DNA from: Gemmatimonadota bacterium
GTDB taxonomy: Bacteria > Gemmatimonadota > Gemmatimonadetes > Palauibacterales > Palauibacteraceae
NCBI GenBank assembly: GCA_032251515.1
Contig: JAVVDU010000002.1
Coordinates: forward strand, 17,936 to 81,935
Direction: 5' to 3'
Length of the DNA stretch: 64,000 bases
Both the position numbers and the translations under genes were made by a program. The notes beneath the pieces were generated by a model, which had not been told where the DNA came from, did not search any database, and saw only the letters and a program-made list of their open reading frames with translations. Of the stretch, positions 15,201 to 38,481 are shown piece after piece (positions within the stretch are counted from its first letter, which is position 1; the number at the start of each line of letters is the position of its first letter).

Positions 15201-15419
15201 ACACCCGCAGGGACCCGTCCGGTCTCCTCCGCGCATCCGCCCCCCGGCCTCCCGGCCCACGGGGGATACCGCGGGAAACACGCGCCTCCCGGGAGAGTAT
15301 CCAGAAGGGGTTGCGGCGTCCCCGTCCCACGTGGCAGGATGCGCCGCGAGCCGGGGCCCGACCCGCGCGGGTTCGCGGCCCTTTCGCAGCGTGGTTGACT
15401 CGAACGGGAATTCTGTTAC

Positions 15420-16781
15420 ATGAACAGACGATCGGTGAGCCTGGCGGGCGTGATGACCGCCCTGACCCTCCTGCTGCTGGCGTGGCCGGCGGCGCCGGCC
15501 CTCGCGCAGGACGACTGCGTGGAGGGCGGCAACCAGTGGACACGGGGCGCCGAGATCGAGCTGAGCTGGTCGCAGCGCAGGGATGACCCGCAGACGAAGC
15601 AGGAGCGGTACACCAAGGCCCTGGAGGCCCTGGAGCCGTCCTTCGCGAAGCAGCCCGTCGATCCGCGGACCTTCCTGCTGGCCGCCCAGGCGCATCTCGG
15701 CCTGCGCAACTTCGCACAGGCGGACTCGATGCTGACGGCCCTGGTCGAGGCCGTACCGGCCTGCAAGGAACAGGCGGACGAGATGCGGTTCAACGCCTGG
15801 GTCCCGTTCTACAACCGGGGCGTGGAGATGCTGAACGCGGGCGACGAGGCCGCGGCGCTCGAGGCCTTCGAGGACGCGAACTCGATCTACCGAGACGCCC
15901 GTTCCCTGAACAACGCGGCCTCCATCCACCAGAGTCGCGGCGACACGGCGAAGGCGATCGCCATGTACACCGAGGCGCTGGCCGCCGGCGGGGCGGAGGA
16001 AGCCAACGTCCGGGCCGCCACGATCAACCTCGCCGAACTGATGCGCGCGTCCGGTCAGGTCGAGGAGGCCCTGCAGATCTACGAGAGCTACGCGGCGGAC
16101 CACCCGGACGACGTGCTCGGCAAGCTCAACTACGCGATCGCCCTGGTGGATGCGGACCAGGACTCGGCGGCGCAGGAGATCTTCGGCGAACTGCTGGGCC
16201 GGGACGACCTCAGCTTCACGCAGTGGTCGCAGGTGGGGATCGGCCTGTACCGGGCCCGGAACTTCACACGCGCCGCGCAGGCGTTCCAGAAGGCGCACGA
16301 CCAGCAGCCGCTGAACAAGGAGACGCTCGAGAACCTCGCGAACTCCCATTACCAGGCCGAGAACTACGCGGAACTGCTGCCGCTCGCCGACACACTCGTG
16401 TCGCTGTATCCCTACGAGCGGGTCAACTACAACCTGCTGGCCAACGCCCGCACGGAGCAGAAGGACGAGGCGGGGGCCCTGGCGATCCTCGAGGCCCGCG
16501 AAGAGCTCGCGTTCGAGTTCCTGCGTGCCCAGCTCGGCCAGGTCGGCGAGAGCGTCTACTCCCTCGACGGCCAGATCATGAATCGCTCGGGCGCGGAGGG
16601 AAGCGAAGTGGAGATTCCGGTCATCTTCCTGGGGGAAGGGCACACCCCGGTCCTCGAGGAGATGCTGGTGCTGACGCTTCCGGCCCAGGGCGACGTGGCG
16701 GGCTTCCAGCTGCAGGTGGAGAGCGACACGCCGATCCTCGGGTTCCGGTACGAGAAGGCCGCGCCCGGAGGCGGGGCCTGA
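15420..16781 (+). CDS. secreted tetratricopeptide-repeat protein
   Basis: Signal peptide (MNRRSVSLAGVMTALTLLLLAWPAAPALAQDD) and multiple TPR-like helical repeats. Confidence 0.55.
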   Translation: MNRRSVSLAGVMTALTLLLLAWPAAPALAQDDCVEGGNQWTRGAEIELSWSQRRDDPQTKQERYTKALEALEPSFAKQPVDPRTFLLAAQAHLGLRNFAQADSMLTALVEAVPACKEQADEMRFNAWVPFYNRGVEMLNAGDEAAALEAFEDANSIYRDARSLNNAASIHQSRGDTAKAIAMYTEALAAGGAEEANVRAATINLAELMRASGQVEEALQIYESYAADHPDDVLGKLNYAIALVDADQDSAAQEIFGELLGRDDLSFTQWSQVGIGLYRARNFTRAAQAFQKAHDQQPLNKETLENLANSHYQAENYAELLPLADTLVSLYPYERVNYNLLANARTEQKDEAGALAILEAREELAFEFLRAQLGQVGESVYSLDGQIMNRSGAEGSEVEIPVIFLGEGHTPVLEEMLVLTLPAQGDVAGFQLQVESDTPILGFRYEKAAPGGGA

Positions 16782-16804
16782 CCCACCGACTGCCGACCGG
16801 CGGG

Positions 16805-16829
16805 GCGGACGGCGACGATCCCCGTCCGC
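16805..16829 (+). terminator. hairpin GCGGACGG-N9-CCGTCCGC after the TPR gene
   Basis: 8-bp perfect stem 24 nt downstream of the 15420..16781 stop. No U-tract, as is common in high-GC genomes. Confidence 0.25.
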
Positions 16830-16893
16830 TCCGCCGCCGCGCGGGTCCCGGGCCCGGAGCGGCCCCTCCCGTGCCCGCGGAGTTTCCGTTCCC

Positions 16894-18177
16894 GTGATCC
16901 GTATCCTGCGCGTCCGCCCCGGGTCGATCGCCGACGAGCTCGGTCTCTCGCCGGGAGCCCTCGTCCTGCGCATCAACGACTCCGAGGTCCGGGACGGACT
17001 GGATCTGCGCTTCCTCGAGGCGGACGCCGAGCTGGTCGTCCTGGTGCGCCGGGCCGGCGGCGAGGAGGTCCTGTTCGACATCGAGAAGGACCCGGACGAG
17101 TCCCTGGGGATCGTGCCGGAGCCGGACAAGGTCCGCCGCTGCACCAACGCGTGTCCCTTCTGCTTCGTGAAGGGGAACCCCCGCGCGGAGAAACTCCGGG
17201 CGGGCCTGTACATCAAGGACGACGACTACCGGCTCTCGTTCCAGTTCGGCCACTACGTCACGCTGACCAACCTCCGCGACGAAGACTGGGAGCGCATCTT
17301 CGCGCAGCGGCTGTCGCCGCTCTACGTCTCGGTGCACGCGACGGACCCGGAGGCGCGACTCGCGATGCTCGTGAACCCGCGCGCGGCGCGGATCGGCGAG
17401 CACCTCGACCGCCTGGGGGAGGGCGGGATCCGCGTGCACGCGCAGGTCGTGCTGTGTCCCGGGCTCAACGACGGGACCGTGCTGGAGCGCACGATCGATG
17501 ACCTGTACGCGCGGGGCGAGGCGATCCTGTCGCTGTCCGTCGTTCCGGTCGGTCTCACGAGCTACAATCGCGACCGGGGCGTTCGCCAGCTGACCCCGGA
17601 GGAATGCCACCGCGCCCTGGACCGGATCGAGGCGGTGCGCCGCCGGGCGAAGCGGGAGCGGGGCCACGGGTGGTGCTATGCGGCGGACGAGCTGTTCCTG
17701 CAGGCCGGACTCGAGGTGCCGGGGCGCGCCTATTTCGACGAGGGAGAGCTGACCGCGAACGGGGTCGGCGCGATCTCCGAGCTCCTGGACCTGGCACGCC
17801 GGGACCTGCCGGACCTGCCCCGGTTGCCGGACCGGCGGATCGTTCTGGTCACGGGCACCTCCATGGGGCCGCACCTCGCGCGCCTGGCCGACGAGATCGC
17901 CGACGTGACGGGAGCACGACTCGACGTGGCGGCGACGGAGAACGGGCTGTACGGACCCCTGGTCACGACCGCCGGCCTGTTGAGCGGGGCGGACCACGCC
18001 GCGGCGCTGCGACGCCACCCGGAGTTCGAGCTCGGCCTGTTCTCGCGTGCCGCGCTGAACGATGATGAGGCGTTCCTCGATGATGTGACCCTCGCCGGCC
18101 TGCGGGCGGGCTTTCCGGGCAGGGAGATATGGCCAGCGGAACACGTGACGGACGCCCTCCGGGCCCTGTCGGCGTAG
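16894..18177 (+). CDS. PDZ-domain / radical-SAM-like DUF512 protein
   Basis: N-terminal PDZ-like segment. CxxxCxxC (CTNACPFC) motif. DUF512 family proteins are commonly encoded upstream of der. Confidence 0.6.
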   Translation: MIRILRVRPGSIADELGLSPGALVLRINDSEVRDGLDLRFLEADAELVVLVRRAGGEEVLFDIEKDPDESLGIVPEPDKVRRCTNACPFCFVKGNPRAEKLRAGLYIKDDDYRLSFQFGHYVTLTNLRDEDWERIFAQRLSPLYVSVHATDPEARLAMLVNPRAARIGEHLDRLGEGGIRVHAQVVLCPGLNDGTVLERTIDDLYARGEAILSLSVVPVGLTSYNRDRGVRQLTPEECHRALDRIEAVRRRAKRERGHGWCYAADELFLQAGLEVPGRAYFDEGELTANGVGAISELLDLARRDLPDLPRLPDRRIVLVTGTSMGPHLARLADEIADVTGARLDVAATENGLYGPLVTTAGLLSGADHAAALRRHPEFELGLFSRAALNDDEAFLDDVTLAGLRAGFPGREIWPAEHVTDALRALSA

Positions 18178-19499
18178 CCGTCGTCGCGATCGTCGGCCGG
18201 CCGAACGTGGGGAAGTCGACCCTGTTCAACCGGATCGTGGGCCGCCGCATCGCCATCGTGGCCGAGCGCGAAGGGGTGACCCGCGACCGCCAGTTCGCCG
18301 AGGCGGACTGGCACGGGCGCTCGTTCCTCCTCGCCGACACGGGAGGCATCCTCGACGTACCGGAGCGACCGCTCGACCGTGCGGTCCGGGAGCAGGTCCT
18401 GACGGCGATCGAGGCGGCCGACGCGGTCCTGTTCGTGGTGGACGGCCGCACCGGGGTGCACCCGGTCGACGAGCACGTGGCCGACCTGCTGCGCCGTGCG
18501 GACCGGCCGGTGGTGCTGGCCGTGAACAAGCTGGACGAGCCGGCCACGGCGACCGGGCAGCACGACTTCCACCGGCTCGGACTCGGGGAGCCCGTCCCGG
18601 TCTCGGCGCTGAGCGGGAAGGGCAGCGGCGACCTGCTCGACCGGGTCGTCGCCCGTCTGCCGCCGGCCGCCGGGCCGGGCACCGCCCGGGAGGGGCTCCG
18701 GCTGGCGGTCATCGGTAAGCCGAACGTCGGCAAATCGAGCTTCGTGAACCGGCTGCTCGGCCAGGATCGGGTGCTCGTGCACGACGAGGCGGGCACGACC
18801 CGCGACGCGATCGACACGTGGCTCGAGATCGAGGGCGAACCGGTCTGCCTGATCGACACGGCCGGCCTGCGGCGGCGGGCGCGGGTGGATGACGAGGTGG
18901 AGTTCTACAGCCGGCTGCGCGCGGCCGCCGCGATCGAGCGGGCGGATGTCTGTCTGCTCCTCGCGGACGCGCGGGCGGGACTCACGAACCAGGACTTCCG
19001 GATCGGCGAGGAGGCCTGGGAGGCCGGCTGCGGTCTGGTGCTCGTGGTGAACAAGTGGGACCTGATCGCGGACCGGGGTCCCGACGTGGTGGCCGACTTC
19101 GAGCGCCGACTGCAGGAGCGTGCCGCCTTTCTCCGGTTCGTGCCCATGCTGACGGCCTCGGCGCTCAGCGGCCAGCGCGTGCGTAAGGCGGTCGACATCG
19201 CCCGCGAGGTGGCGGCGACGCGCGGCCGCCGGATCCCCACGGCCGAGGTGAACCGCGTGCTCGGCGAGCTGACCCGCCGACGGCAGCCGCCGCAGGGGGG
19301 ACGGGGTGACGTCAAGCTCTTCTACGGGAGCCAGGTGGCGGCGGCCCCACCGCGCTTCGTGCTGTGGTCCAACCGGCCCGCCGACGTGAAGTCGAACTAC
19401 CTGCGGTACCTCTCCAACGGCTTCCGGGCCGCGTGGGGGTTCGAGGGGAGCCCGCTCCGCATCGCCGTCCGGAAGCGCCCCGAGGGGAGGCAGCGATGA
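18129..19499 (+). CDS. der: ribosome-associated GTPase Der (EngA), tandem GTP-binding domains
   Basis: Two G domains (GRPNVGKSTLFN, GKPNVGKSSFVN) plus a KH-like C-terminus. The only in-frame start is the ATG at 18129, which overlaps the upstream gene by 49 nt. Confidence 0.9.
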   Translation: MASGTRDGRPPGPVGVAVVAIVGRPNVGKSTLFNRIVGRRIAIVAEREGVTRDRQFAEADWHGRSFLLADTGGILDVPERPLDRAVREQVLTAIEAADAVLFVVDGRTGVHPVDEHVADLLRRADRPVVLAVNKLDEPATATGQHDFHRLGLGEPVPVSALSGKGSGDLLDRVVARLPPAAGPGTAREGLRLAVIGKPNVGKSSFVNRLLGQDRVLVHDEAGTTRDAIDTWLEIEGEPVCLIDTAGLRRRARVDDEVEFYSRLRAAAAIERADVCLLLADARAGLTNQDFRIGEEAWEAGCGLVLVVNKWDLIADRGPDVVADFERRLQERAAFLRFVPMLTASALSGQRVRKAVDIAREVAATRGRRIPTAEVNRVLGELTRRRQPPQGGRGDVKLFYGSQVAAAPPRFVLWSNRPADVKSNYLRYLSNGFRAAWGFEGSPLRIAVRKRPEGRQR

Positions 19500-20155
19500 G
19501 CGTCGTGATGTGGGCGGCGGCCGCCTATCTGGCCGGGTCCGTTCCGGCGGCCTGGATCGCCGGCCGGGTCGCGGGCATCGATCTGCGCAGCCGGGGAAGC
19601 GGAAACCTGGGCGCCACGAACACCTGGCGAGTGCTCGGCCCGCGGGCCGCGATTCCCGTCGTTCTGTTCGATGTGCTCAAGGGTTACCTGCCCGCCGCGT
19701 ATTTTCCGCTCCTCGACGGGCGGGCGGGGCCCTCGCTGACGCTCCTGTACGGCGGGCTCGCCATCGCGGGTCACGTGTGGCCCGTGTGGCTGGGCTTCCG
19801 GGGCGGCAAGGGAGTCGCGACGGGTGCGGGCGTGCTGGTGGCCCTCGCGCCCCTCGCCGCTCTCGTGGCGCTCCTGACCTGGATCGGGATCGTGTCGCTC
19901 ACCCGCACGGTTTCGTTGGCGTCGCTGGTCGCGGCCGCCTGCGTCCCCGTCGTCGCCCGGGTGACGGATGCGGGGGCCGAAGCCGTCGGGTTCGGAGTGG
20001 CGGCGGCCCTGTTCGTCTTCTGGACGCACCGGGCGAACCTCGGCCGGCTGCGGCGCGGCACGGAGCTCAGGTTCGGCGGTCGCGACGCGCGGGCGGCGGC
20101 CGCCGAACCGGAAGGAAGCGAGTCGACGGAGGGAGAGAAGGGGAGGGGACCGTGA
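19496..20155 (+). CDS. plsY: glycerol-3-phosphate acyltransferase PlsY
   Basis: ATGA overlap with der. PlsY motifs GSGNLGATN and HVWPVWLGFRGGKGVAT. Confidence 0.85.
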   Translation: MSVVMWAAAAYLAGSVPAAWIAGRVAGIDLRSRGSGNLGATNTWRVLGPRAAIPVVLFDVLKGYLPAAYFPLLDGRAGPSLTLLYGGLAIAGHVWPVWLGFRGGKGVATGAGVLVALAPLAALVALLTWIGIVSLTRTVSLASLVAAACVPVVARVTDAGAEAVGFGVAAALFVFWTHRANLGRLRRGTELRFGGRDARAAAAEPEGSESTEGEKGRGP

Positions 20156-21165
20156 GCCGCACCCCGATCGCCGTCATCGGAGGAGGGAGCTGGGGCACGG
20201 CGCTGGCCGACTGCCTGGCCCGCAACGGGCATGCCGTACGCCTGTGGGTCCACGAGCCGGAGGTGGCGCAGGCCATCGCCGCGGACCGCCGGAACGAGGC
20301 CTACCTCCCCGGCGTCGAGCTGCATGCCGGCCTCCGGCCTGCACACGATATGGAAGTCGCGCTGGAGGGCTGTAACGTAGTGATTTCCGTGAGTCCATCT
20401 CATGTCGTGCGAGAGGTGATGACGCGGGCGGCGCCGACGATTCCGGCGGGGGCGCTCGTCGTGAGCGCCTCGAAGGGCCTCGAGATCGAGTCGGGGCTGC
20501 GGATGAGCGAGGTCCTCGCCCAGGTCCTCGGCCGGGAGCGCGCAGCGGGGTGCGTGGTGCTGTCCGGTCCGAGCTTCGCGGCCGAGCTCGCGCGGCGCCT
20601 GCCCACCGCGGTCGCCCTGGCGTCCGGGTCGCTTCCGAACGCCGAGCGGGTGCAGGCGCTGTTCCAGAACGAGCACTTCCGGTTGTACACGCAGGGTGAC
20701 GTGATCGGGACGGAGCTGGGCGGCAGCCTGAAGAACGTCGTCGCGCTGGCGGCGGGGATCAGCGACGGGCTCGGCCTGGGGGCCAATGCGCGGGCGGCCC
20801 TCCTGACCCGCAGCCTCGCCGAGCTCGGCCGGCTGACCGAGCGCTGCGGGGGCGACCCGGCCACCCTGTCGGGACTCGCCGGAGTCGGAGACCTGGTCCT
20901 CACGTGCACGGGCGACCTGAGCCGGAACCGGCGCGTGGGCCTCGCGATCGGCGAGGGACGGTCCCTGGCGGAGATCCTCGCCGGCATGCGGTCGGTGGCG
21001 GAAGGAGTGCGCACCACCCGGGCCGTCATGGAGCTCGCCGGGAAGCACGGGGTGGAAATGCCCATCGCCGCCGCCGTATACTCCATCCTGTACGAAGATG
21101 TCGCCCCCCGTGAGGCCCTCGCGGCACTGATGGCACGGGAGCCGAAGCCCGAACGCTGGAGCTGA
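20152..21165 (+). CDS. gpsA: NAD(P)H-dependent glycerol-3-phosphate dehydrogenase GpsA
   Basis: GTGA overlap with plsY. Signature IAVIGGGSWGTALA and GpsA C-terminal domain. der-gpsA synteny as in Firmicutes. Confidence 0.9.
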   Translation: MSRTPIAVIGGGSWGTALADCLARNGHAVRLWVHEPEVAQAIAADRRNEAYLPGVELHAGLRPAHDMEVALEGCNVVISVSPSHVVREVMTRAAPTIPAGALVVSASKGLEIESGLRMSEVLAQVLGRERAAGCVVLSGPSFAAELARRLPTAVALASGSLPNAERVQALFQNEHFRLYTQGDVIGTELGGSLKNVVALAAGISDGLGLGANARAALLTRSLAELGRLTERCGGDPATLSGLAGVGDLVLTCTGDLSRNRRVGLAIGEGRSLAEILAGMRSVAEGVRTTRAVMELAGKHGVEMPIAAAVYSILYEDVAPREALAALMAREPKPERWS

Positions 21166-21170
21166 CCGCC

Positions 21171-21521
21171 GTGGATGACCGGATCGCCGAAAAGGAGTAC
21201 TACTCGATCGGCGAGGTCTGCGAGCTCACCGGCCTGAAGGCGCACGTCCTGCGCTACTGGGAGACCCAGTTTCCGGCGCTGCGGCCGACCAAGAACCGGG
21301 CCGGAAACCGTGTGTACCGGCGGCGGGAGATCAAGCTCGTGCACCTGCTGCGGCACCTCCTGTACGGCGAGAAGTACACCATCGAAGGGGCCCGGCTGAA
21401 GCTCGAGCAGCTCCGCCGGGGCGGCCGGCTGTCGCGGGCCGCCCGCGTCGCCTGGGAGACGGACGCGGTGCGGGAGCTGCGACGGGAGGCGGATGCCCTC
21501 GTGGAGCTTCTCGACACGTGA
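21171..21521 (+). CDS. MerR-family transcriptional regulator
   Basis: HTH YSIGEVCELTGLKAHVLRYWE, followed by a coiled-coil. Confidence 0.6.
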   Translation: MDDRIAEKEYYSIGEVCELTGLKAHVLRYWETQFPALRPTKNRAGNRVYRRREIKLVHLLRHLLYGEKYTIEGARLKLEQLRRGGRLSRAARVAWETDAVRELRREADALVELLDT

Positions 21522-22297
21522 GCGGCACCCGCTCCCTCCCCCGAACGCCGCGCATTCTCTGCACGAACGACGACGGCATTCACGCCCGCGGGCTCGCGGT
21601 GCTCGTCGAGGCCGCCCGGTCCCTCGGCGAGGTGACCGTCGTGGCGCCCGACCGGGAGCAGAGCGCCACCAGCCATTCCCTCACCGTGCACCGCCCCCTG
21701 CGGGTCACCACGCTCGACGGGACGCGGCACGTCATCGACGGAACGCCCACCGACTGCGTCCTGATCGCCGTGAACCAGTTGCTGGAGGAGCGCCCGGACT
21801 TCGTCCTCTCGGGGGTGAATCACGGTCCGAACATGGGCGAAGATGTCCTGTACTCCGGGACGGTCGCGGCCGCCATGGAGGCGACGATCCTCGGGATTCC
21901 GTCGATCGCCGTCTCGTTCGCCAGCCGCGACGTCGCGCGACTGGCCGAGGGGGCGGAGGCCCTGGCCGGCATCCTGCGCCCGCTGCTCGGGCGCGGCGAG
22001 TTCCCCCGGGAGACCTTCTTCAACATCAACCTGCCCGACATCGCGCCGGCCGAGATCCAGGGCGTGCGCGTCACGACGCTCGGGCGCCGGGTGTACTCCG
22101 ATTCGCTGACCCGGCGGGAGGACCCGGCCGGGCGGGAGTACTTCTGGATCGGGGGAGGCGTCTCCAGCTGGCACGGCAGGGATGACTCGGACTTCCGGGC
22201 CGTGCGCGCCGGGTTCGCCTCGCTCACGCCGTTGCGGCTCGACCTCACGAACTACGGGCTGATGCACGAGGTGCGCACGTGGATCCAGGCGCCGTAG
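21518..22297 (+). CDS. surE: 5'/3'-nucleotidase SurE
   Basis: ILCTNDDGIHARGL N-terminus. Classic surE-pcm pairing. Confidence 0.85.
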   Translation: MSGTRSLPRTPRILCTNDDGIHARGLAVLVEAARSLGEVTVVAPDREQSATSHSLTVHRPLRVTTLDGTRHVIDGTPTDCVLIAVNQLLEERPDFVLSGVNHGPNMGEDVLYSGTVAAAMEATILGIPSIAVSFASRDVARLAEGAEALAGILRPLLGRGEFPRETFFNINLPDIAPAEIQGVRVTTLGRRVYSDSLTRREDPAGREYFWIGGGVSSWHGRDDSDFRAVRAGFASLTPLRLDLTNYGLMHEVRTWIQAP

Positions 22298-22932
22298 CCG
22301 GCGCGTATCGCCACTCGCGGCGCCGTCTGGTCGAGGCGCTCGCCGCGGGCGGCATCGAGGACCTCGCGGTGCTGCACGCCTTTCACGCGGTGCCGCGCCA
22401 CCTGTTCGTGCCCGAGGCGGTGCGGCACCGCGCCTACGAGGACGCGGCGCTTCCGCTGGGCCACGGACAGACGATCTCGCGTCCCGCCGTGCATGCCGCG
22501 TTCCTGCAGCTCGCCGGGCTGCAGGGCCACGAGCGCGTGCTGGAGATCGGGACGGGGTCGGGCTTCCAGACGGCCCTCCTGGCCACCCTGGCGCGCGAAG
22601 TGTGCACGGTCGAGGTCGTCCCCGCGCTCGCGGACGAGGCCCGGCGGGCCGTCACGGCCCTCGGGTTCGAGAACGTGAGCTTCCTCACCGGAGACGGGAG
22701 CGCGGGCTGGCCGGCCAGGGCCCCGTTCGACGTGATCCTGGTGGGCGCGGCGGCCCCCGAGGTGCCGGCGGCGTTGCAGGAGCAACTCGCGGTGGGCGGC
22801 CGGCTCCTCATCCCGGTCGGAGACACGCGGCGGCAGGTGCTCCTGCAGGTGGACCGGACAGGGGATGGCTGGTCCACGCGGGAGGTGGAGCCGGCGCGGT
22901 TCGTCCCCCTGGTGGGAGAGGGGGGCTGGTGA
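22279..22932 (+). CDS. pcm: protein-L-isoaspartate O-methyltransferase Pcm
   Basis: VLEIGTGSGFQTALLA SAM motif. PCMT fold. Confidence 0.85.
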   Translation: MDPGAVAGAYRHSRRRLVEALAAGGIEDLAVLHAFHAVPRHLFVPEAVRHRAYEDAALPLGHGQTISRPAVHAAFLQLAGLQGHERVLEIGTGSGFQTALLATLAREVCTVEVVPALADEARRAVTALGFENVSFLTGDGSAGWPARAPFDVILVGAAAPEVPAALQEQLAVGGRLLIPVGDTRRQVLLQVDRTGDGWSTREVEPARFVPLVGEGGW

Positions 22933-23549
22933 CGGAACCGGCCACCCCCCCGGCGAAGCGGGACAACGTGTTGCGGCGTCTCTATCACTGGGTGCTCGGC
23001 TGGGCGGACCGGCCCGGGGGCACCGCGGCCCTGTTCGGCATCGCGTTCGCCGAGGCATCCTTCTTCCCGATCCCGCCCGACGTCCTGCTGATTCCGCTCG
23101 CGCTGGGCCGCGTGCGACGGTCGCTGTGGTTCGCGCTCGTCTGCACCTTGGGATCGGTGTTCGGAGCCATGGCCGGTTACGCGATCGGCGCCTTCCTGTT
23201 CGCCTCCGTCGGCCGACCACTGCTCGAGTTGTACGACGGCATGGACCAGTTCGCGCACCTGGGTCGCCTGTTCGACGAGAACCTCCTGCTGACCCTCGGT
23301 ACGGCGGGGTTCACGCCGATCCCGTTCAAGGTGTTCACGATCGCCTCGGGGGCGTTCGCCGTCTCCTTTCCCGCCTTCGTGGCCATCTCCGCGCTGAGCA
23401 GGGGAGCACGCTTCTTTTTCGTGGCGGGGCTGATCCGCGCCTTCGGGGAGCCGATCCGGGGCTTCATCGAGCGGTACTTCAACATCCTCTCGGTGGCCTT
23501 CGTGGCACTGCTGGTTCTCGGATTCCTGGCCGTCTCCATCCTGTTCTGA
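22929..23549 (+). CDS. YqaA/DedA-family (SNARE-associated) membrane protein
   Basis: GTGA overlap with pcm. Conserved FFPIPPDVLLIPLAL segment. 206 aa with several TM helices. Confidence 0.6.
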   Translation: MTEPATPPAKRDNVLRRLYHWVLGWADRPGGTAALFGIAFAEASFFPIPPDVLLIPLALGRVRRSLWFALVCTLGSVFGAMAGYAIGAFLFASVGRPLLELYDGMDQFAHLGRLFDENLLLTLGTAGFTPIPFKVFTIASGAFAVSFPAFVAISALSRGARFFFVAGLIRAFGEPIRGFIERYFNILSVAFVALLVLGFLAVSILF

Positions 23550-23624
23550 GCTCCGCCGGGAACGACGCCCGGCCGTCCGCCGGGCGCGACGGCCGGGCGC
23601 GAATCGGCCCCGGGGCGGCCCTCT

Positions 23625-23640
23625 TGGCACGAGAGCGGCT
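23625..23640 (+). promoter_or_regulatory. candidate sigma-54 (-24/-12) promoter TGGCACG-AGAG-CGGCT upstream of the 23751 gene
   Basis: GG-N10-GC spacing matches TGGCACG-N4-TTGCW, except that TT is replaced by CG in the -12 box. About 110 nt upstream of the ATG. rpoN is present in the window. Confidence 0.25.
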
Positions 23641-23750
23641 CCGCCCGTAGGTTGACGGGCCGCGTCCGGGGGCGCATTCCCGCCGGCGCCCATGTGACCT
23701 GTTCGTAATTCATTGTCAAAAAGTCATTTACGCCGAAAGGTGCAAGCGGC

Positions 23751-24584
23751 ATGGCAAGGCAGATCGCGAAGGAATCCCGTTCCGGACCACCGCCGCCCGA
23801 GGACCGCGTCACCGAGACGATGGTCACGGCGGCCGTATGGGCGGAGCGACATCGCCGCACCCTCGTTCTGGCGGTGGTGGCCGCGGTCGCCCTGGGCCTG
23901 GCCGGCTGGGCGTGGCTCGACTACCGGGGCAAGCTGGTGGAGCGTGCTGCCACGCGCCTGGACGAGATCCGTCTCGAGGCCGCCTCCGGAGCGCCTCCAT
24001 CGGAGGTGAAGGCGGCGCTCGCCACCTACGTGGAGCAGTTCGGCGACACGTCGTTCGGTAACGAGGGACGGATGTACCTGGCCCGGCTCCAGATGGAGGA
24101 GCGGGACTACGCGGCGGCGATCCGGACCCTCGAACCGGCGGCCGAGCTGCGGGAGAAGACTCCGGTCGCGTTCCGCGCCGCCGAGTCGATCGCCGCCGCG
24201 GAGGAGATGCGCGGCAACCCCGAGGAGGCGATCCGCTGGCTGCAGCGCCTGGCGGACGCGGCGCTGTTCGCCGACCAGGCCCGGCGGGCGGAGGCGGAGA
24301 TCGCCCGGATCGCCGCGCAGGCGGGCGACCTGGAGCGGGCCCGGGCGACGTACGCCCGGCTCGTCGCCGAAACGGCCGCGGAGGACCAGGCCGCCGGCGC
24401 GGAGCTGGCCGAGTGGCGGGTGCGGCTCGGGGAGGTCGAGGCGGCGCTGCGCACCGACGCCGAGATCCCGGCGCCGCCCGTCGCGGCCCCGGCGGCGGCG
24501 ACGCAGACGGAAGGGGCTCCGGGGAGCGAGGCGCCTGGTGCGGACGCGCCCGTGGAGGAAGGCAGCGAGGCTAACGGCGCATAA
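23751..24584 (+). CDS. YfgM-like membrane-anchored TPR/helical-repeat protein
   Basis: Cytoplasmic N-terminus, one TM helix (TLVLAVVAAVALGLAGWAWL), an Ala/Glu-rich helical periplasmic domain and an acidic low-complexity tail. Confidence 0.4.
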   Translation: MARQIAKESRSGPPPPEDRVTETMVTAAVWAERHRRTLVLAVVAAVALGLAGWAWLDYRGKLVERAATRLDEIRLEAASGAPPSEVKAALATYVEQFGDTSFGNEGRMYLARLQMEERDYAAAIRTLEPAAELREKTPVAFRAAESIAAAEEMRGNPEEAIRWLQRLADAALFADQARRAEAEIARIAAQAGDLERARATYARLVAETAAEDQAAGAELAEWRVRLGEVEAALRTDAEIPAPPVAAPAAATQTEGAPGSEAPGADAPVEEGSEANGA

Positions 24585-24601
24585 GGTATATTATGTAAAC
24601 T
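24574..24601. other. dif: dif chromosome-dimer resolution site (XerC/XerD target): ACGGCGCATAA-GGTATA-TTATGTAAACT
   Basis: 21/28 identity to E. coli dif. Fits the cross-phylum consensus ATAAnrTAyATTATGThAAnT. Located in the convergent gap where coding strand switches. Overlaps the stop codon of the 23751..24584 gene. Confidence 0.6.
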
Positions 24602-24658
24602 AGCGCTCCGGTCTCTCCGCCCGCGTTCCTGTTCCGGGCGCGGCCGTCTCTTCCCCGC

Positions 24659-25426
24659 TCACAGCCGCCCGAAGATCGACGCGAGGCGCAGGGCCCACAC
24701 CCGCCACACGGCCTCCCGCACGATCGCCCCCGACATCTTGCTCTGGCCGTCCGTGCGGTCGCTGAACACGATCGGGACCTCGTGCAGGCGGAACCCCTTC
24801 TTCCAGGCCCGGAAGTCCATCTCGATCTGGAACGCGTAGCCGGTGCTCCCCACGCGCTCCAGGGGGATCGCCTCCAGCACCTCGCGCCGGAAGCACTTGA
24901 AGCCGCTCGTGGCGTCCGACAGGGGCATCCCGGTGATCCAGCGCGCGTACCGGTTGGCGAACCAGGACAGGAGGAGCCGGCCCATCGGCCAGTTGATCAC
25001 GTTCACGCCGCGCACGTAGCGGGACCCGATGACCAGGTCCGCCTCCTCGCGGGCCGCCCGCAGGAGCTCGGGCAGGTAACGCGGGTCGTGCGAGAAGTCC
25101 GCGTCCATCTCGCACAGGAAAGCGTAGCCCCGCTCGAGGCCCCATGCGAACCCGGCGAGGTAGGCCGAGCCGAGTCCCTGTTTCCCGGCGCGATGCAGGA
25201 CGTGCACCCGGGGCGACTCGGTCGCGAGCTGATCCGCGATCCGCCCCGTGCCGTCCGGCGACGCGTCGTCCACCACGAGGACGTCGATGCGGGAATCGGC
25301 CGCGAGGATCCGCGGCAGGATGCCCGGCAGGTTCTCGGCCTCGTCGTACGTCGGGAGGACGACGAGCGTCCTCTCGCGGCCCGTCCGGCCTTCACCCTCG
25401 CGCCTGTCGCTGCCGTGCTCGCTCAT
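24659..25426 (-). CDS. Dpm1-like GT2 polyprenyl-phosphate mannose (or hexose) synthase, soluble type
   Basis: LVVLPTYDEAENL, VLVVDDASPDGT, DADFSHDP and SRY..GV...W (Dpm1/Ppm1 catalytic domain). No C-terminal TM. Start at 25426 verified by residue count. Confidence 0.75.
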   Translation of the reverse strand: MSEHGSDRREGEGRTGRERTLVVLPTYDEAENLPGILPRILAADSRIDVLVVDDASPDGTGRIADQLATESPRVHVLHRAGKQGLGSAYLAGFAWGLERGYAFLCEMDADFSHDPRYLPELLRAAREEADLVIGSRYVRGVNVINWPMGRLLLSWFANRYARWITGMPLSDATSGFKCFRREVLEAIPLERVGSTGYAFQIEMDFRAWKKGFRLHEVPIVFSDRTDGQSKMSGAIVREAVWRVWALRLASIFGRL

Positions 25427-26469
25427 TTCCTCTCGTCTGCCGTCTCCGAGGGGCCGCGCCCTCCGCCTGTGTCGGGTGGGCCGCCGTCGATCCGCCGCGA
25501 CGTCTCCGCCCTCCCGCCGGCCCGCGGGAGCCAGGCGACCCCGAGGGCGCCGAGCTCCGCCGCGGTCGACCACAGCCGGGCGACCGCGGCGAACGCCGCC
25601 GCCGGAGCGAGGGAAACGGGGCCCGTCGCCACGAGGAGGCCTGCCAGAGCCCCTTCCCTCACCACCAGGCCGCCGGGCGCGAACAGTGCCAGGTAACCGG
25701 CCAGGTAGGCTGCGGCGAACAGGCCGGCGAACCTCCACGGGCCGGGGTCCGCGGGCCCGCCCACCCCGCGCCACAGGAGCCACAGTCCCACGCCCTGCAG
25801 GAGCCAGGCGGCCACCAGGGCCGCGCCGCCGGACCACAGGGCCCGGGGCCCGGATCGCGCCAGCGCGGCCGTCTCCCCTTCCCCGAAGCGGCGTGCCAGC
25901 AGACGGGCCAGCCGCACGGCCGGTGCAGGCCGCAGGAGAAGACCGAGCCCTGCCACGACGAGCGCCGCCGCCCCCACCCGCATCCAGGCGCCGCCCGGCG
26001 TGCCCCCGAGGGACGCCAGGGCGACGGCCGCCCCCGTGCCCAGCACGAGGACCTGGAAGAGCGCTGCCGCGGCGAGGGCGGCCGCGCCCGCGCCCCGGCG
26101 CTCGCGCATGTAGGCGGCGAGGCCGGCGAGCTGCCACACCTTGCCGGGAACGTAGCGGCCCAGGTTCGTGGTCATCCACACCCGGATGCCCTCTGCCGTG
26201 CCGCAGCTGCCTCCCAGACGCCGGAAGATACCGACCCACACCCGTCCCATCACGAACAGGGAGAGGATTCCGGGGCCCAGCGAGGCGAGGGCCCAGCCCG
26301 GGCGCAGGCGCCATCCCGCTGCGGCGAGGTCGGCCCGCAGCCGGCCGAGCTCGCCGCCCTGCCGCGCCCACAGCGCGCCGAGAAACGCCAGCGACAGGAC
26401 CACGAACGCCCACCCCCCGAGACGCAGGCGGCGGGACGCGCGCCGGGGCTCAGCCGGCGTCCCGGACAC
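25423..26469 (-). CDS. flippase-like polytopic membrane protein (UPF0104 / lysyl-PG-synthase-TM-like domain)
   Basis: Start is a GTG at 26469 (V19 of ORF 25423..26523). About 8 TM helices. ATGA-coupled to the Dpm1-like gene. Family call is from general similarity. Confidence 0.4.
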   Translation of the reverse strand: MSGTPAEPRRASRRLRLGGWAFVVLSLAFLGALWARQGGELGRLRADLAAAGWRLRPGWALASLGPGILSLFVMGRVWVGIFRRLGGSCGTAEGIRVWMTTNLGRYVPGKVWQLAGLAAYMRERRGAGAAALAAAALFQVLVLGTGAAVALASLGGTPGGAWMRVGAAALVVAGLGLLLRPAPAVRLARLLARRFGEGETAALARSGPRALWSGGAALVAAWLLQGVGLWLLWRGVGGPADPGPWRFAGLFAAAYLAGYLALFAPGGLVVREGALAGLLVATGPVSLAPAAAFAAVARLWSTAAELGALGVAWLPRAGGRAETSRRIDGGPPDTGGGRGPSETADERK

Positions 26470-28765
26470 GGCCTGGTCCGAGAACGCGCCAGCGGCGCAC
26501 CGCCGGGACGAGCAGCACGGCAAGGGCGGCGGCCAGGCCGAGTCCCGTGAGCGTGAAGCCGAGCCGGAATTCGTCGGGAGCGTAGCGGAACCGGACCACG
26601 TGCCGGCCCTCCGGCACCACGACGGCCCGGAAGGCGACGTTGGCCCGCAGCACCTCGAGCTCCTCGCCGCCCTCCAGCTCGGCCCGCCACGCCGGGTGCC
26701 AGATCTCGCTCACGAACAGGAGGCCGCCCGTCTCGGCCTCCACCTCCAGGTCCACCGCGTCCGGCTCCCAGCGGACCACCCGCGCCGCGCCACGCCCGGC
26801 CGGCGGCGCGCGATCCGTCTCCACAACCACCGCGTCGGCCGGCCGCTCGGCCCGCAGGACGGCCTGCAGGGCGGCCGCCGTGTCCCGCGTCGCCCGCACC
26901 GCGGCGGGAAACCAGGCGTGCGGCCCGTCTCCGGCCACCTCGTGCAGCACGCCGCGCGGGCCGGCGGAGACGGGCTCGAGCAGCGGCGACTCCACCGGCC
27001 CGTCGGTAACGACGAAGCGCAGGTCGAACAGGGGCCACAGACCCGGGTCGCCGAGATTCCGGTACGACAACCCGCCGGTGAGCCGCTCCGTCCACTCGAG
27101 CCGGAAGTTCTGGCTGCCGGTGACGGACGGCACGCGGGCACCCATCAGCTCGTTGGGGCCGAACGTGCGCCGGCCGGGGACCGGGAACACGCGCTCCCCG
27201 GGGGCCAGCTCCGCGCGCATGCGGTCGATCGACTCCGCCGCCGGGAAGGCCTCCTCCGGGGTCAGCGTGGCCAGGTAGCGCCGGTCCACGCGCCACAGGT
27301 CCGCCACGAGGAGCGCGAGGACGGCGAGCAGCGCCGCCGGCTCCGGCCAGCGGCCGCTCGCCACCCCGCGGGCCGCCGCCCCCACCAGGCCGAGCCCGGC
27401 GAGCAGGAGGAGGCCGTTGAGCCGCAGCGCCCCGGTGGCCGCCTCGCCGGGAGCGCCCGCCCCGGCCGGCACGAGGGCCGTCCCGGCCCAGCGCATCATG
27501 CCGGCGGGCGCCAGGGCCGCCGCCAGGCCGAGCAGGAGCAGCGGCGCGGCGGCCACGAGGAGACCCACCCACGGCAGGCCCCCCTGCGTCGCGCGCGCCG
27601 CCCGGATGCGCTCCCAGCCGAAGGCGGCCAGGAGAGCGACGAACAGGGCCACCGGGCCGAGCATCATCGAGGGGGCCCGGAACCGCGAGATGAAGGGGAT
27701 GAGGTGGAAGGCGAGGCGGTGCACCGGGGTCGCGGCCCCCAGCGCGAACAGCAGGCCGAGCGCCGCCAGGGCCCCGAGGGCCGCCACTCGACCGTCGCGG
27801 CGGGCCCGCGTCAGGCCGACCAGGGCGAGCGCGACCGGCACCGCGCCCAGGTACTCCGTGTGGAGCTTGAACGGGTTCGCCCCGCGGTACGTCTCCAGCG
27901 ACCCGAGGAGGTCCGGGAGCACCAGCGCCGTCAGCTCGCCCGGCGGCAGCGCCCAAGACGCGGCGAAGCCGTACCCGGCCTCGCCGGTGCCGCCGCGCAC
28001 GGCGATCTCGAGAATCCGCCACGTCGGCACGAGCTGCGCCGCTCCCACCAGCGCCGCCAGCACGAACGCCCCGGCCACCGCGCCCCCGGCGTGTACGGCG
28101 CGGGACCTGCCCTCCTCCCGGGCCAGCATGGCGATCCGGACCAGCGCGTAGAACAGGAGCAGCAGCGACGAGAAGTACATCAGCTGCACGTGGGGCGTGA
28201 AGATCTGCAGCGCCACGACGAGGCCGAAGCCCGCGAACCAGGCGACCCGGCCCGACGCCAGCCCTTTCTCGAGACAGGCGAAGGCGAGCGGCGTCAGCAC
28301 CATCACGAACATGCGGCCGTCGTGGCCGCCGTACAGGGTGGAGACGACGAAGCCGGTCAGCAGGAACGAGATGCCGGCGACCGCGGCGGCGCTGCGCCCC
28401 AGCCCGAGGGCACGCGCGGCGAACCAGGCGAACACGCCCGACAGGAACGTGTGCAGGACGAACGTCCACCCGATGGCGCGGTGCAGCGGCAGGACCAGGT
28501 ACAACAGGCTCGTGGGATAGAAGACCGGGCCCGGCAGGATGGCCAGGTACGGCAGTCCCCCGTACACGAACGGGTTCCAGAGCGGAAAGCCCCGGCCCGC
28601 CTTCAGCTCCTCGACGGCGAAGGCGCGCAGGTGGTACGCCTGGTCCAGCATGTCCGTGCCGAACAGCATGCGATCCGGCCGCAGGACGAACTCCGCGTAG
28701 AACCCCAGCGTGAGGACCGCGCAGGCCGCCGCGAACAGGGCCCCGGCCGGCGGGCGCCGGGTCAC
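26450..28765 (-). CDS. YfhO-family GT-C-type membrane glycosyltransferase (772 aa)
   Basis: GTG start at residue 217 of the 987-aa ORF. Upstream of that the ORF is the antisense of the methyltransferase gene. N-terminal 10-13 TM helices with a large C-terminal periplasmic domain. YfhO-like length and topology. Confidence 0.55.
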   Translation of the reverse strand: MTRRPPAGALFAAACAVLTLGFYAEFVLRPDRMLFGTDMLDQAYHLRAFAVEELKAGRGFPLWNPFVYGGLPYLAILPGPVFYPTSLLYLVLPLHRAIGWTFVLHTFLSGVFAWFAARALGLGRSAAAVAGISFLLTGFVVSTLYGGHDGRMFVMVLTPLAFACLEKGLASGRVAWFAGFGLVVALQIFTPHVQLMYFSSLLLLFYALVRIAMLAREEGRSRAVHAGGAVAGAFVLAALVGAAQLVPTWRILEIAVRGGTGEAGYGFAASWALPPGELTALVLPDLLGSLETYRGANPFKLHTEYLGAVPVALALVGLTRARRDGRVAALGALAALGLLFALGAATPVHRLAFHLIPFISRFRAPSMMLGPVALFVALLAAFGWERIRAARATQGGLPWVGLLVAAAPLLLLGLAAALAPAGMMRWAGTALVPAGAGAPGEAATGALRLNGLLLLAGLGLVGAAARGVASGRWPEPAALLAVLALLVADLWRVDRRYLATLTPEEAFPAAESIDRMRAELAPGERVFPVPGRRTFGPNELMGARVPSVTGSQNFRLEWTERLTGGLSYRNLGDPGLWPLFDLRFVVTDGPVESPLLEPVSAGPRGVLHEVAGDGPHAWFPAAVRATRDTAAALQAVLRAERPADAVVVETDRAPPAGRGAARVVRWEPDAVDLEVEAETGGLLFVSEIWHPAWRAELEGGEELEVLRANVAFRAVVVPEGRHVVRFRYAPDEFRLGFTLTGLGLAAALAVLLVPAVRRWRVLGPGRVRDAG

Positions 28766-29514
28766 GCGGCGCTCTCCGGCTTCCGGACGACGAAGAACCA
28801 CTGGGGCGAAAGCGCCCGCAGCACGAGGCGCCGCGGAACGCCGGGCAGTCGCCGGAAGAGGCGCCAGGCACGCACGAGGGCCGGGCCACGCAGCCGTCCG
28901 AGCAGGTCGTCGATCGCCGCCTCCGTGATGTCGTCCACCTCGAATCCCGCCGCCTCCATCCGCTCGCGCAGCGCCCGGTAGCCGAGGAACCGGATCCCCT
29001 CGTAGCGGCGGCCACGCCCGGAGAGCCGAAGGTACAGGGTGGCGGCGGGGGCCGGAAGCCAGCTCAGGAACGGCAGCCGGTAGTGGGGCTCGAGCACCGC
29101 GAAGCGGCTGCCGGCCGAGACGTAGGCCCGGCCGCCGCGCCGGAGGACGCGGAACGTCTCGCGTAACAGCCCCGCCACGTCCGGCACGTGCTCGTACAGG
29201 TGGTTGAGCAGCGCGAAGTCGACCGTGCCGTCCCGCAGGGGAAGGCGCAGCACGTCGGCTCCCACCATCCGCGACCGGTCGACCACGAACGACAGGTCGA
29301 TCTCGAAGCCGAGCACGGGGTGCCCGGCCCGTCGCTCGAGGGCGGCGCGGATGAGCCCCGTGCCCGCCCCGAGATCCGCCGCGACGGCGGCCTCCCGGAG
29401 CCACGGCGCGCACAGGTGCCAGATCACCTCTGCCTTGCGTTCGCGGCTGCGAAGGTACGCCTCGGAAGAGACGAGAGCGCCGTAGCGGTCCGCGCCGGCG
29501 TGCTCACGCCCCAC
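28762..29514 (-). CDS. class I SAM-dependent methyltransferase
   Basis: Motif I DLGAGTG. Methyltransf_11/23-like. GTGA overlap with the yfhO-like start. Confidence 0.65.
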   Translation of the reverse strand: MGREHAGADRYGALVSSEAYLRSRERKAEVIWHLCAPWLREAAVAADLGAGTGLIRAALERRAGHPVLGFEIDLSFVVDRSRMVGADVLRLPLRDGTVDFALLNHLYEHVPDVAGLLRETFRVLRRGGRAYVSAGSRFAVLEPHYRLPFLSWLPAPAATLYLRLSGRGRRYEGIRFLGYRALRERMEAAGFEVDDITEAAIDDLLGRLRGPALVRAWRLFRRLPGVPRRLVLRALSPQWFFVVRKPESAA

Positions 29515-30718
29515 GGCGGCGCTCCAGGGCCGTACGGTAGGCCTCCTCCGTCCGGTCCAGCACCGCCCGCCAGCCGAACCGTTCCCGGGCGCGCACGCGG
29601 CCCCGCCGCGCCATGTCCCGCGCCGCGGCCGGGTCCGCCGCGATGCGCTGGAGGGCTTCCGCCAGCGCTCCCGGGTCGCCGGGCGGCACGAGCAGCCCGG
29701 TATGGCCCGGCTCGACGATGTCCGGAATCCCGCCGACGGCGCTCGCTACCACCGGGCGCTCGTAGCGCAGGGCCTCGAGGAGCACCACGCCCAGCCCCTC
29801 GGTGTCGCCCTTCGCATCGACCACGGCGGGCAGCACGAACACGTCGGCCCGGGCGTACTCCTCCTCGAGCCTCCGACGCGACACGAAGCCCGGCATCCGG
29901 ACCCGCCCGGCGAGGCCCAGGGACTCGATCTCCCGGCGGATCGACCGTTCCCGCTCCCCTGCCCCGATCACCGTGAGCTCGGCGCCCGACGCGGCCGGCA
30001 GGCGCGCCACCGCCCGCAGGAGGATCTCCACTCCCTTCCGTTCCACGAGGCGTCCCACGAACAGGATGCGCAGGCGGTCCGGGTCCGCCCCGGCGGCCCG
30101 CGCGACGGGAGCGCCGTCGTCCTCGATCGCGCTGCCGTAGGGAACGACGGACACGGGCCCCGGGGCGAGCGCCTGCACGGCCGCCGCCGTGGAGCGGGAG
30201 ATCGCCGTCACCGCGTCCGCCGTGCGGACCGTCCAGCGCAGGAACGGCAGGAGGGCGGGCAGCCGGTGCCGCACCCAGTTCAGCTCCACGCTGTAGAAGC
30301 TGCACACGACGCCGGCCTTGCCCCCGGACCCGTGCCGCGCGGCAGCCCCGAACAGGGCGTGCGGCATCGGCCAGTGCACGTGCACCACGTCGAGCCCCCG
30401 GCGCCCCAGCCGGTGCGCCGCGTCGGCGCCGGCAGCGAGGTAAGCCGGCAGCAGGAACCCCTGCAGCGGCCGGCGGCGCAGGCGGTCCGGCACGGTCTCG
30501 TCGTGCGTGAGCGTCTCCAGGGCGGCGGGCGCGTAGCGGAAGCGGTGCACGGGGAGAGCGCCCGCGGCGCCCGGCTCCGGTCCGCCGCGGTAGGAAGGCG
30601 CCAGGACGACCGCGTCGTGGCCGGCATCCCGCTGCCGGCGCACCAGCTCGACCAGCCACGGGGTGATCGGATCCCGTTCGTGCCGGGGCCACGCCGTGAC
30701 GACGTGCAGGACGCGCAT
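29504..30718 (-). CDS. GT4-family glycosyltransferase (GT-B fold)
   Basis: C-terminal GT4 signature ...ADVFVLPA..EG.G.V.LEA...RPVVAS..GG..D.V. Confidence 0.8.
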   Translation of the reverse strand: MRVLHVVTAWPRHERDPITPWLVELVRRQRDAGHDAVVLAPSYRGGPEPGAAGALPVHRFRYAPAALETLTHDETVPDRLRRRPLQGFLLPAYLAAGADAAHRLGRRGLDVVHVHWPMPHALFGAAARHGSGGKAGVVCSFYSVELNWVRHRLPALLPFLRWTVRTADAVTAISRSTAAAVQALAPGPVSVVPYGSAIEDDGAPVARAAGADPDRLRILFVGRLVERKGVEILLRAVARLPAASGAELTVIGAGERERSIRREIESLGLAGRVRMPGFVSRRRLEEEYARADVFVLPAVVDAKGDTEGLGVVLLEALRYERPVVASAVGGIPDIVEPGHTGLLVPPGDPGALAEALQRIAADPAAARDMARRGRVRARERFGWRAVLDRTEEAYRTALERRRGA

Positions 30719-30743
30719 GACGGAAGGCTGCGGCCGCGCCGCG

Positions 30744-31721
30744 TCAGCGGGGACCGGACGGGTTCCGGGCCGCCCTCACCTCGCCGCGCAGCTGCTCGAC
30801 TTCGGCACGGAGCCCGGCCACCAGCTCGCCCACGAGCCCCGCCACGAACAGCAGCGCGCCCAGGAGGACGAGCAGCAGGACGAGCGTGAGCAGCGGGCGG
30901 AAACCGGTGTCGCGCACGAACCGGAGCCACAGCGCCGCGAGGCCCACTACCCCGCCCGCGGCGAACAGGACGAGTCCCGTCGTGCCGAAGAACATCAGGG
31001 GCTTGCGCGCGAACACGAGCTGGAACCACACGGCGAGCAGATCGAGGGTACCGACGAGGATCCGGCCGCCGCCCCGGTACTTGGAGGTGCCGTGGCGCCG
31101 GGGGTGCAGGGCGATGTCGATCTCCCCGACCCTCCAACCCCGCACGTGTGCCAGGACGACGAGGTAGCGATGCCAGTCCTCCCGGAGCTGCAGGTCGTCC
31201 AGCACCTCGCGACGCAAAGCCTTCATCGCGTTCATGTCGTGCACCGGGACGCCGAACAGCCGGCGGGCCAGCCCGTTGTAGATCCCCGACACGAGACGCT
31301 TCTCGTAGCGGCCCACCTTGCGGCCGGTCACCACGTCCAGACCGCCTCCGGACTCCAGGGCATCCAGGAAGCGGGGGATCTCCTCGGGGGAATGCTGCAG
31401 GTCGGCGTCGAACACGACGAGGACGGGAGCCTCCGTGGCGGCGGCCCCGGTGACGATCGCCGACGTCTTGCCGCGGTTCCGCCGGTGGCGGAGCAGGCGC
31501 ACCCGGTCCAGCCCCGCCTCGGCCGCCGCGGCGCGCGCCGCGGCGAGCGTGTCGTCCGTCGAGCCGTCGTCGACGAGCACGACCTCTCCCGCGAGTCCGT
31601 GGCGGCCGAACGTGGCGGCCAGCTCGCGGAACAGGTCCGGCATGTTCGCGGCCTCGTCGAGGGCCGGCACGAGGACGGCGAAGCGCGGCGGCGGAGGAGC
31701 CACGCCCCGTTCCGGGCTCAT
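30744..31721 (-). CDS. GtrB/ArnC/CsbB-type GT2 polyprenyl-phosphate glycosyltransferase with C-terminal double TM
   Basis: GT2 DxD (VVFDADLQHSPEE) and VLVPALDEAANM. Two C-terminal TM helices. ATGA overlap with the rpoN stop. Confidence 0.75.
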   Translation of the reverse strand: MSPERGVAPPPPRFAVLVPALDEAANMPDLFRELAATFGRHGLAGEVVLVDDGSTDDTLAAARAAAAEAGLDRVRLLRHRRNRGKTSAIVTGAAATEAPVLVVFDADLQHSPEEIPRFLDALESGGGLDVVTGRKVGRYEKRLVSGIYNGLARRLFGVPVHDMNAMKALRREVLDDLQLREDWHRYLVVLAHVRGWRVGEIDIALHPRRHGTSKYRGGGRILVGTLDLLAVWFQLVFARKPLMFFGTTGLVLFAAGGVVGLAALWLRFVRDTGFRPLLTLVLLLVLLGALLFVAGLVGELVAGLRAEVEQLRGEVRAARNPSGPR

Positions 31722-33157: not shown

Positions 33158-33227
33158 CGGCCCCCGTGATCCGTTCCGTGTCCCGGTCTGGAGCGTCGTC
33201 TCTCCCCCGAACCGCGCTCGCTCCCTG

Positions 33228-33233
33228 ATAATA
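33228..33233 (-). promoter_or_regulatory. TATTAT -10-like hexamer (minus strand) upstream of rpoN
   Basis: AT-rich hexamer within the 111-bp lptB-rpoN intergenic region. No convincing -35. Confidence 0.15.
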
Positions 33234-33241
33234 GGAGAGTC

Positions 33242-33261: not shown

Positions 33262-33268
33262 TTGCACT

Positions 33269-35346: not shown

Positions 35347-37639
<2,293 letters not shown>

Positions 37640-38479: not shown

Positions 38480-38481
38480 AG

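Follow-up and report, generated by a model that had tools for sequence, protein, structure and literature searches.

The window analysed here, a stretch of 64,000 nucleotides (64 kb), contains a short element at which a gene encoding a TPR_21-domain protein and a gene encoding a family-2 glycosyltransferase (GT2) converge (Table 1). An initial annotation of the window placed a 28-mer resembling the dif site of Escherichia coli at positions 24574-24601 and took it to mark a replication terminus. The 28-mer is indeed present on the + strand, where it is read as ACGGCGCATAAGGTATATTATGTAAACT, that is, ACGGCGCATAA-GGTATA-TTATGTAAACT, and the geometry that had been described for it also holds: the TPR gene overlaps the site by 11 nt and a gap of 74 bp separates the TPR gene from the GT2 gene. 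The left arm ends in TAA, the triplet at which translation of the upstream TPR gene stops.

Table 1. Principal features of the locus, given in coordinates of the 64-kb window.
Feature	Coordinates	Strand	Basis or remarks
Putative left replichore end	1..24573	+	GC skew +0.054, T-A skew +0.069; G>C, T>A
TPR_21-domain gene, last of the putative left replichore	23751..24584	+	Pfam TPR_21
Left (XerC-type) arm, ACGGCGCATAA	24574..24584	+	Arm assigned by homology to E. coli dif
Central (strand-exchange) region, GGTATA, 6 bp	24585..24590	+	
Right (XerD-type) arm, TTATGTAAACT	24591..24601	+	
Putative right replichore end	24602..64000	-	GC skew -0.052, T-A skew -0.073; C>G, A>T
Family-2 glycosyltransferase (GT2) gene, first of the putative right replichore	24659..26413	-	Pfam Glycos_transf_2
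XerD-like tyrosine recombinase, 349 aa	40605..41654	-	NCBIfam, Pfam, structure match

To the left of the 28-mer lie genes for lipid A synthesis, NadB, RlmH, BshC, MurJ, UvrC, Der and GpsA, and to its right are genes for glycosyltransferases, RpoN, LptA/B-like proteins, PyrG, IspF, FabF/G/D, Ndk and SucCD, together with the complex I operon. The putative terminus region is composed of core housekeeping genes, with no prophages or accessory genes. Related loci, described below, place the window in the Gemmatimonadota, and the sigma-54 gene that it carries argues against an origin in the Actinobacteria.

Several further features of the window deserve a brief description. At 731-2146, a single open reading frame (ORF) of 471 aa encodes an LpxC-FabZ fusion, in which LpxC is joined to a FabA/FabZ-like dehydratase domain. 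The GpsA (glycerol-3-phosphate dehydrogenase) ORF, at 19510-21165, has an N-terminal extension of approximately 215 aa with no Pfam match, which is probably real since it aligns in several relatives (L033, L042, L050 and L068). Just after a DedA-like ORF, at 23552-23599, there are tandem GC-rich direct repeats of 24 nt (TCCGCCGGGAACGACGCCCGGCCG / TCCGCCGGGCGCGACGGCCGGGCG), each of which contains a short inverted repeat; these repeats may form a terminator-like structure. An AT-rich patch at 23692-23739 (ATGTGACCTGTTCGTAATTCATTGTCAAAAAGTCATTTACGCCGAAAG) lies 12 bp upstream of the start of the TPR gene and is probably the promoter or leader of that gene; a scan of the patch with the sigma-70 consensus found no promoter there.

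The 28-mer has the architecture of a dif site, with two 11-bp arms on either side of a 6-bp centre (11+6+11) and an inner dyad of the form CATAA-N6-TTATG. Over their full length the arms are dyad-symmetric at just 6/11 positions. The assignment of one arm of the E. coli dif site to XerC and of the other to XerD is established knowledge, and the arms of the present site are named after their counterparts in it. The earlier description of the site as one of two AT-rich patches in the window is borne out, in that 28-nt windows with a GC fraction of 0.36 or less are confined to 23692-23739 and 24571-24609. Neither a search with the arm pattern nor a scan for matches to the E. coli dif site gave a second copy of the element in the 64 kb, where the next-best dif-like position matches just 13/22 arm positions, and no meaningful repeats involving the 28-mer were found.

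For comparison with known sites, the E. coli and Bacillus dif reference sequences were verified in Table S1 of Kono et al. 2011 (PMC3025954). The 28-mer is identical to E. coli dif (GGTGCGCATAATGTATATTATGTTAAAT) at 22/28 positions, one more than the 21/28 previously counted. The mismatches, at positions 1-3, 12, 24 and 27, had been said to fall mainly in the outer part of the XerC arm, yet this is true for half of them (1-3), the others lying in the centre (12) and in the XerD arm (24 and 27). Broken down by element, the left arm ACGGCGCATAA is identical to the E. coli XerC arm GGTGCGCATAA at 8/11 positions, the centre GGTATA to the E. coli TGTATA at 5/6 and the right arm TTATGTAAACT to its E. 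coli counterpart at 9/11; the shared positions include GCGCATAA of the XerC arm and TTATGT of the XerD arm. The two systems are alike, too, in the location of the site at a GC-skew switch and in the presence of a XerD-like recombinase gene in the genome. What sets them apart are three bases at the outer end of the left arm, one in the centre and two in the right arm, the phylum of the host, and the surroundings of the site, which in the window are 64 kb of co-oriented housekeeping genes. The Bacillus dif sequence, ACTTCCTAGAATATATATTATGTAAACT, matches the 28-mer at 21/28 positions and its right arm at 11/11; the left arm of the window site, by contrast, is of the proteobacterial type (GCGCATAA), where the dif site of Bacillus subtilis, which is served by RipX and CodV, has CCTAGAA.

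A closer point of reference, in terms of phylogeny, comes from the work of Kono, Arakawa and Tomita 2011 (BMC Genomics 12:19, PMC3025954), who predicted dif sites in 641 organisms, with the Gemmatimonadetes represented by the single genome then available. The site predicted for that genome, Gemmatimonas aurantiaca T-27, is AATGCGTATAATACATGTTATGTAAACT at 1,930,284 bp, and the shift point of the GC skew is 0.011 percentage points away (Kono et al. 2011, Table S1, PMC3025954). The window site, from the same phylum, agrees with it at 21/28 positions, at 19/22 arm positions and at all 11 positions of the right arm. The two differ in the centre, GGTATA in the window and TACATG in G. aurantiaca, and in three bases of the left arm. 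A variant of the G. aurantiaca type, AGTGCGTATAATACATGTTATGTAAACC, was seen downstream of GT2 homologues in two metagenome loci (L126 and L152).

Chance agreement was assessed by shuffling the window. The arm pattern, with up to three mismatches allowed, has one match in the window and none in 100 dinucleotide-preserving shuffles. Across 20 shuffles of the window, the highest agreement with E. coli dif in any one shuffle was 15-18/28, a range that also takes in the second-best position of the real window (18/28, at 58788). The likeness of the 28-mer to experimentally validated dif sites exceeds chance.

The 28-mer coincides with a switch in nucleotide skew and in gene orientation. The cumulative G-C curve of the 64-kb window has its maximum, which at the scale of the window is a local extremum, within the 28-mer at 24595, and a division of the window into two segments of differing skew is best placed at 24601. 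The convergence of coding orientation reported in the initial annotation is equally clear, with all Pfam-supported genes on the + strand to the left of the site and all on the - strand to the right; approximately 55 genes in the 64 kb have such support and every one of them runs the way that replication is inferred to proceed. A gene call based on GC3 gave the same division for its confident genes. Converging genes, together with a skew that passes from positive to negative, are characteristic of a terminus and not of an origin; since the skew and the coding strand change at one and the same position, the contributions of replication and of transcription to the skew are inseparable here. The same bias bears on oligomer counts: of the occurrences of GGGNAGGG, a polarity motif of the E. 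coli type, 19 are directed at the site and 4 face away from it, a count confounded by coding-strand bias, and the most skewed 7- and 8-mers of the window (CCTGTTCG, TCCTGCTG and others) are codon-derived and inseparable from the co-orientation of the genes.

Four ORFs on the opposite strand, at 1-1245 (-), 2190-3446 (-), 5661-6833 (-) and 44748-47291 (+), passed a loose GC3 filter and were rejected as genes. Those at 2190-3446 and 5661-6833 have no Pfam match, and co-oriented alternatives at the same loci did give Pfam matches; those at 1-1245 and 44748-47291 were rejected because they overlap Pfam-supported, co-oriented genes. The matches obtained for the co-oriented alternatives were LpxK, GFO/IDH/MocA oxidoreductase, DedA-like, GT2 and LptB-like ABC ATPase.

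Relatives of the site were sought by a single scan of 185,579 species-representative genomes (596 Gb) with the arm pattern GGCGCATAA-N6-TTATGTAAACT. For 20 fixed bases in 596 Gb, simple arithmetic gives an expectation of approximately one chance match. The scan gave 76 loci from as many different assemblies, with a single site at each; the exact 28-mer of the window was not among them, and look-ups with the exact TPR, Xer, PCMT, IspF and Ndk proteins gave no record. Forty-nine of these loci are labelled Gemmatimonadota and include complete chromosomes of Ca. Palauibacter, and most of the remainder belong to the Fibrobacterota, Bacteroidota, Ignavibacteria-like groups and Burkholderiales. The position of the site in the chromosome was located for five complete relatives, at approximately 932,108 in NZ_OZ244907.1, 2,875,325 in NZ_OZ253465.1, 715,591 in OY762926.1, 3,406,807 in NZ_OZ244149.1 and 1,548,423 in NZ_OZ250143.1.

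When the loci are turned such that the left arm precedes the right, GC-supported ORFs run toward the site on both sides, and the skew of the left flank exceeds that of the right flank at 27/33 Gemmatimonadota loci (p = 3e-4) and at 15/17 other loci. Among the bases left free by the search pattern, the Gemmatimonadota sites favour A at position 1 (47/49), T at position 14 (45/49), A at position 15 (46/49) and A at position 17 (39/49), and the window carries the majority base at all four. The consensus for the phylum reads A-[TC]-GGCGCATAA-NNTANA-TTATGTAAACT, together with variants of the form ACGTATAA...TTATGTTAAGT.

The neighbourhood of the site is conserved along with it. In approximately 40 Gemmatimonadota loci the order of genes seen at 19510-30718 of the window is kept, with GpsA, an ORF, PCMT and TPR on the left and GT2, a YfhO-like protein, a methyltransferase and GT4 on the right, TPR and GT2 pointing toward the site. 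The TPR homologues, of 28-42% identity, stand immediately to the left of the site and point toward it in approximately 40 related loci, and in many relatives the GT2 homologue ends 24-140 bp from the site. Wherever homologues of the flanking genes are retained (approximately 40 loci), the orientation of the site and its neighbours are the same as in the window. In Ca. Palauibacter the conserved order is retained to the left of dif and ends precisely there, the right side being different. Two contigs bear labels from other phyla: L029, from a metagenome-assembled genome (MAG) labelled Akkermansiaceae, has the Gemmatimonadota dif neighbourhood with approximately 70% nucleotide identity to the window, and L071, from a MAG labelled Acidobacteriota, has a TPR homologue of approximately 33% identity adjoining the site; mis-binning is the probable explanation for both.

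So close an association with two genes raises the question of whether the element belongs to those genes, as an operator or a bidirectional terminator for TPR and GT2 that is conserved with the gene pair. The site does stand between the TPR and GT2 genes throughout the approximately 40 Gemmatimonadota species, and it overlaps the TPR stop codon. However, searches around the 28-mer gave no terminator-like sites or hairpins, no promoter-like sites and no Rfam matches, and a terminator, promoter or RNA element was rejected on these grounds. The same arms, moreover, are found at GC-skew switches in genomes of the Fibrobacterota, Bacteroidota, Ignavibacteria-like groups and Burkholderiales that lack the TPR and GT2 genes, Ca. 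Palauibacter keeps the site next to a different right-hand neighbour, and the sequence of the 28-mer is that of a textbook dif. We consider a gene-linked cis-element to be scarcely credible as an explanation.

Some loci show additional DNA next to the site. Between the conserved neighbour gene and dif there are 1-2.8 kb of extra DNA in L007, L053 (Ca. Palauibacter), L039, L097, L110, L111 and L142; L007, L039 and L053 contain no further dif-like site, and the sole match in the extra DNA of the Palauibacter locus L053 is to DUF2299. In a Gammaproteobacteria MAG (L037), an ORF at 6411-6965 encodes a tyrosine recombinase homologue with 30% identity to the Xer protein of the window, approximately 2 kb from a dif-like site; this may be the integrase of an element inserted at dif. 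Ten contigs from the IMG/VR viral collection (L077-L086) carry GCGCATAA-N6-TTATGTAAACT, and their sites are consistent with elements that use the Xer recombination of their hosts.

The viral contigs with dif-like sites of the same arms and the extra DNA beside the site in some relatives would fit a role as attL/attR or attB, the attachment site of a prophage or of an integrated Xer-exploiting element (IMEX), in place of a site at which the host resolves its own dimers. Such an element would be bracketed by two sites with mobile genes between them, yet the window has no second dif-like site and none of the 76 loci has one at 18/25 or above. Both flanks consist instead of housekeeping genes, conserved in order across approximately 40 species and free of phage or integrase genes, and none of the ten viral contigs resembles the window. 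The IMEX or prophage attachment site was rejected as a candidate, and we judge it very improbable.

As the arms are fixed by the search pattern, and so are invariant by construction among the loci that it returns, relatives were also retrieved without the use of the dif sequence. A search with the last 240 residues of GT2 collected 80 metagenome loci. Among those with at least 66% identity and at least 1.4 kb of downstream sequence, 13/16 have RYATAA-N6-TTATGT beyond the end of the gene and oriented as expected; of the other three, two have variants that differ by one base, TTACGT (L104) and TTCTGT (L143). Distant GT2 homologues, mostly of low GC, have such a site in 1/25. Across these loci (328 kb), 22 of the 23 matches to the core pattern are at the expected place and on the expected strand. 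The left arm occurs here as GGCGCATAA, ACGTATAA and GTGCGTATAA and the right arm as TTATGTAAACT, TTATGTTAAGT and TTATGTTAACT; the outer bases of the arms vary, as they do in dif arms, and ATAA-N6-TTATGT is fixed. A dif-type site is conserved at the equivalent position in related genomes.

The recombinase that would act at this site may be encoded in the window itself. A XerC/D-type tyrosine recombinase gene had been noted 16 kb from the 28-mer, and we find this gene to be real. Its product scores 299.4 bits against the NCBIfam model PRK00283 'tyrosine recombinase' (cut-off 279), and 298.3 and 274.9 bits against the XerD and XerC equivalog models, both values being below the respective cut-offs of 329.6 and 335.15. 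In Pfam it matches Phage_integrase and a SAM-like N-terminal domain. Among solved structures the closest is E. coli XerD (1A0P, E = 1e-48), in an alignment that includes the RHxxATHLL and LGHxxxxTTQIYTH boxes, and scores for XerS (96 bits) and for XerH (5JJV, E = 1e-16) are weaker. Judged by its sequence, the protein, which may be orthologous to either XerC or XerD, is the probable catalytic partner of the site. Within the 64-kb window there is no second Xer-family gene and no FtsK gene.

A dif site may also be served by a homotetramer of a single recombinase, after the fashion of XerH/difH, XerS/difSL or the archaeal XerA, with no XerC/XerD pair. Such an arrangement would agree with the one Xer-family gene found in the 64 kb and the 76 related 8-kb loci that were searched, and with a Xer protein whose scores are too low for either equivalog model, XerC or XerD. 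A second xer gene, however, would normally lie elsewhere on the chromosome. Furthermore, the two arms are clearly unlike, each of them resembling the counterpart arm of a two-recombinase dif, and the protein is far nearer to XerD than to XerS, XerH or XerA. G. aurantiaca, for its part, was treated as a genome harbouring XerCD by Kono et al. 2011 (PMC3025954). On balance, a single-recombinase system seems unlikely for this genome.

The reading that we favour, with a high degree of confidence, is that a high-GC (approximately 72%) Gemmatimonadota bacterium has its chromosomal dif site in this 28-mer, at the terminus of replication. It draws on the similarity to known sites and the results of the shuffles, on the joint switch of skew and gene orientation, on the synteny of the relatives, on the presence of a XerD-like gene and on the prediction made for G. 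aurantiaca by Kono et al. (PMC3025954). The proposal of the initial annotation is thus upheld by the architecture of the site and its likeness to dif, by the skew maximum of the window, by the convergence of the genes and by the related loci.

By homology to the systems of E. coli and B. subtilis, a chromosome dimer would arise when sister chromosomes undergo homologous recombination, and two Xer tyrosine recombinases would bind the two 11-bp arms of the site, a XerC-type protein on ACGGCGCATAA and a XerD-type protein on TTATGTAAACT. Two sites would then come together in a synapse at the septum, and an exchange of strands across the 6-bp GGTATA, probably activated by the FtsK translocase, would resolve the dimer into monomers. 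The second recombinase, the dependence on FtsK and the recombination itself are elements of the scheme that we infer from these model systems.

A dif site at the replication terminus is a textbook element, and the finding leaves the understanding of chromosome dimer resolution unchanged. Both this type of element and its presence in the Gemmatimonadota are already known (Kono et al. 2011, PMC3025954). What the present analysis adds is the location of the replication terminus and of the replichore boundary in this genome, which is of use for assembly checks, for replichore-aware analyses and for coverage-based estimates of growth rate, and the extension of a dif prediction from a single Gemmatimonadota genome to dozens of uncultured species.

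The only aspect of the locus that is unusual, and mildly so, is the fixed neighbourhood and orientation of the terminus, along with a surrounding 64 kb made up entirely of co-oriented housekeeping genes. The block in question consists of der, gpsA, a merR-like gene, an unnamed ORF, pcm, a dedA-like gene and TPR on one side of dif, and of GT2, a yfhO-like gene, a methyltransferase gene and GT4 on the other. All of its genes follow the direction of replication in the window, and mostly they do so in the relatives; their order and the orientation of the site are kept in approximately 40 species-level genomes, including Gemmatimonadales, with Ca. Palauibacter retaining the left side only. We suggest, tentatively and as a possibility that has somewhat less than even odds in our view, that the terminus of the Gemmatimonadota is an evolutionarily fixed landmark in which dif is enclosed by a set of housekeeping genes that run in the direction of replication. 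If this is so, it would stand in contrast to the plastic terminus regions of model bacteria, which are poor in essential genes, and dif would provide a reliable anchor for orienting the fragmented metagenome-assembled genomes of the Gemmatimonadota.
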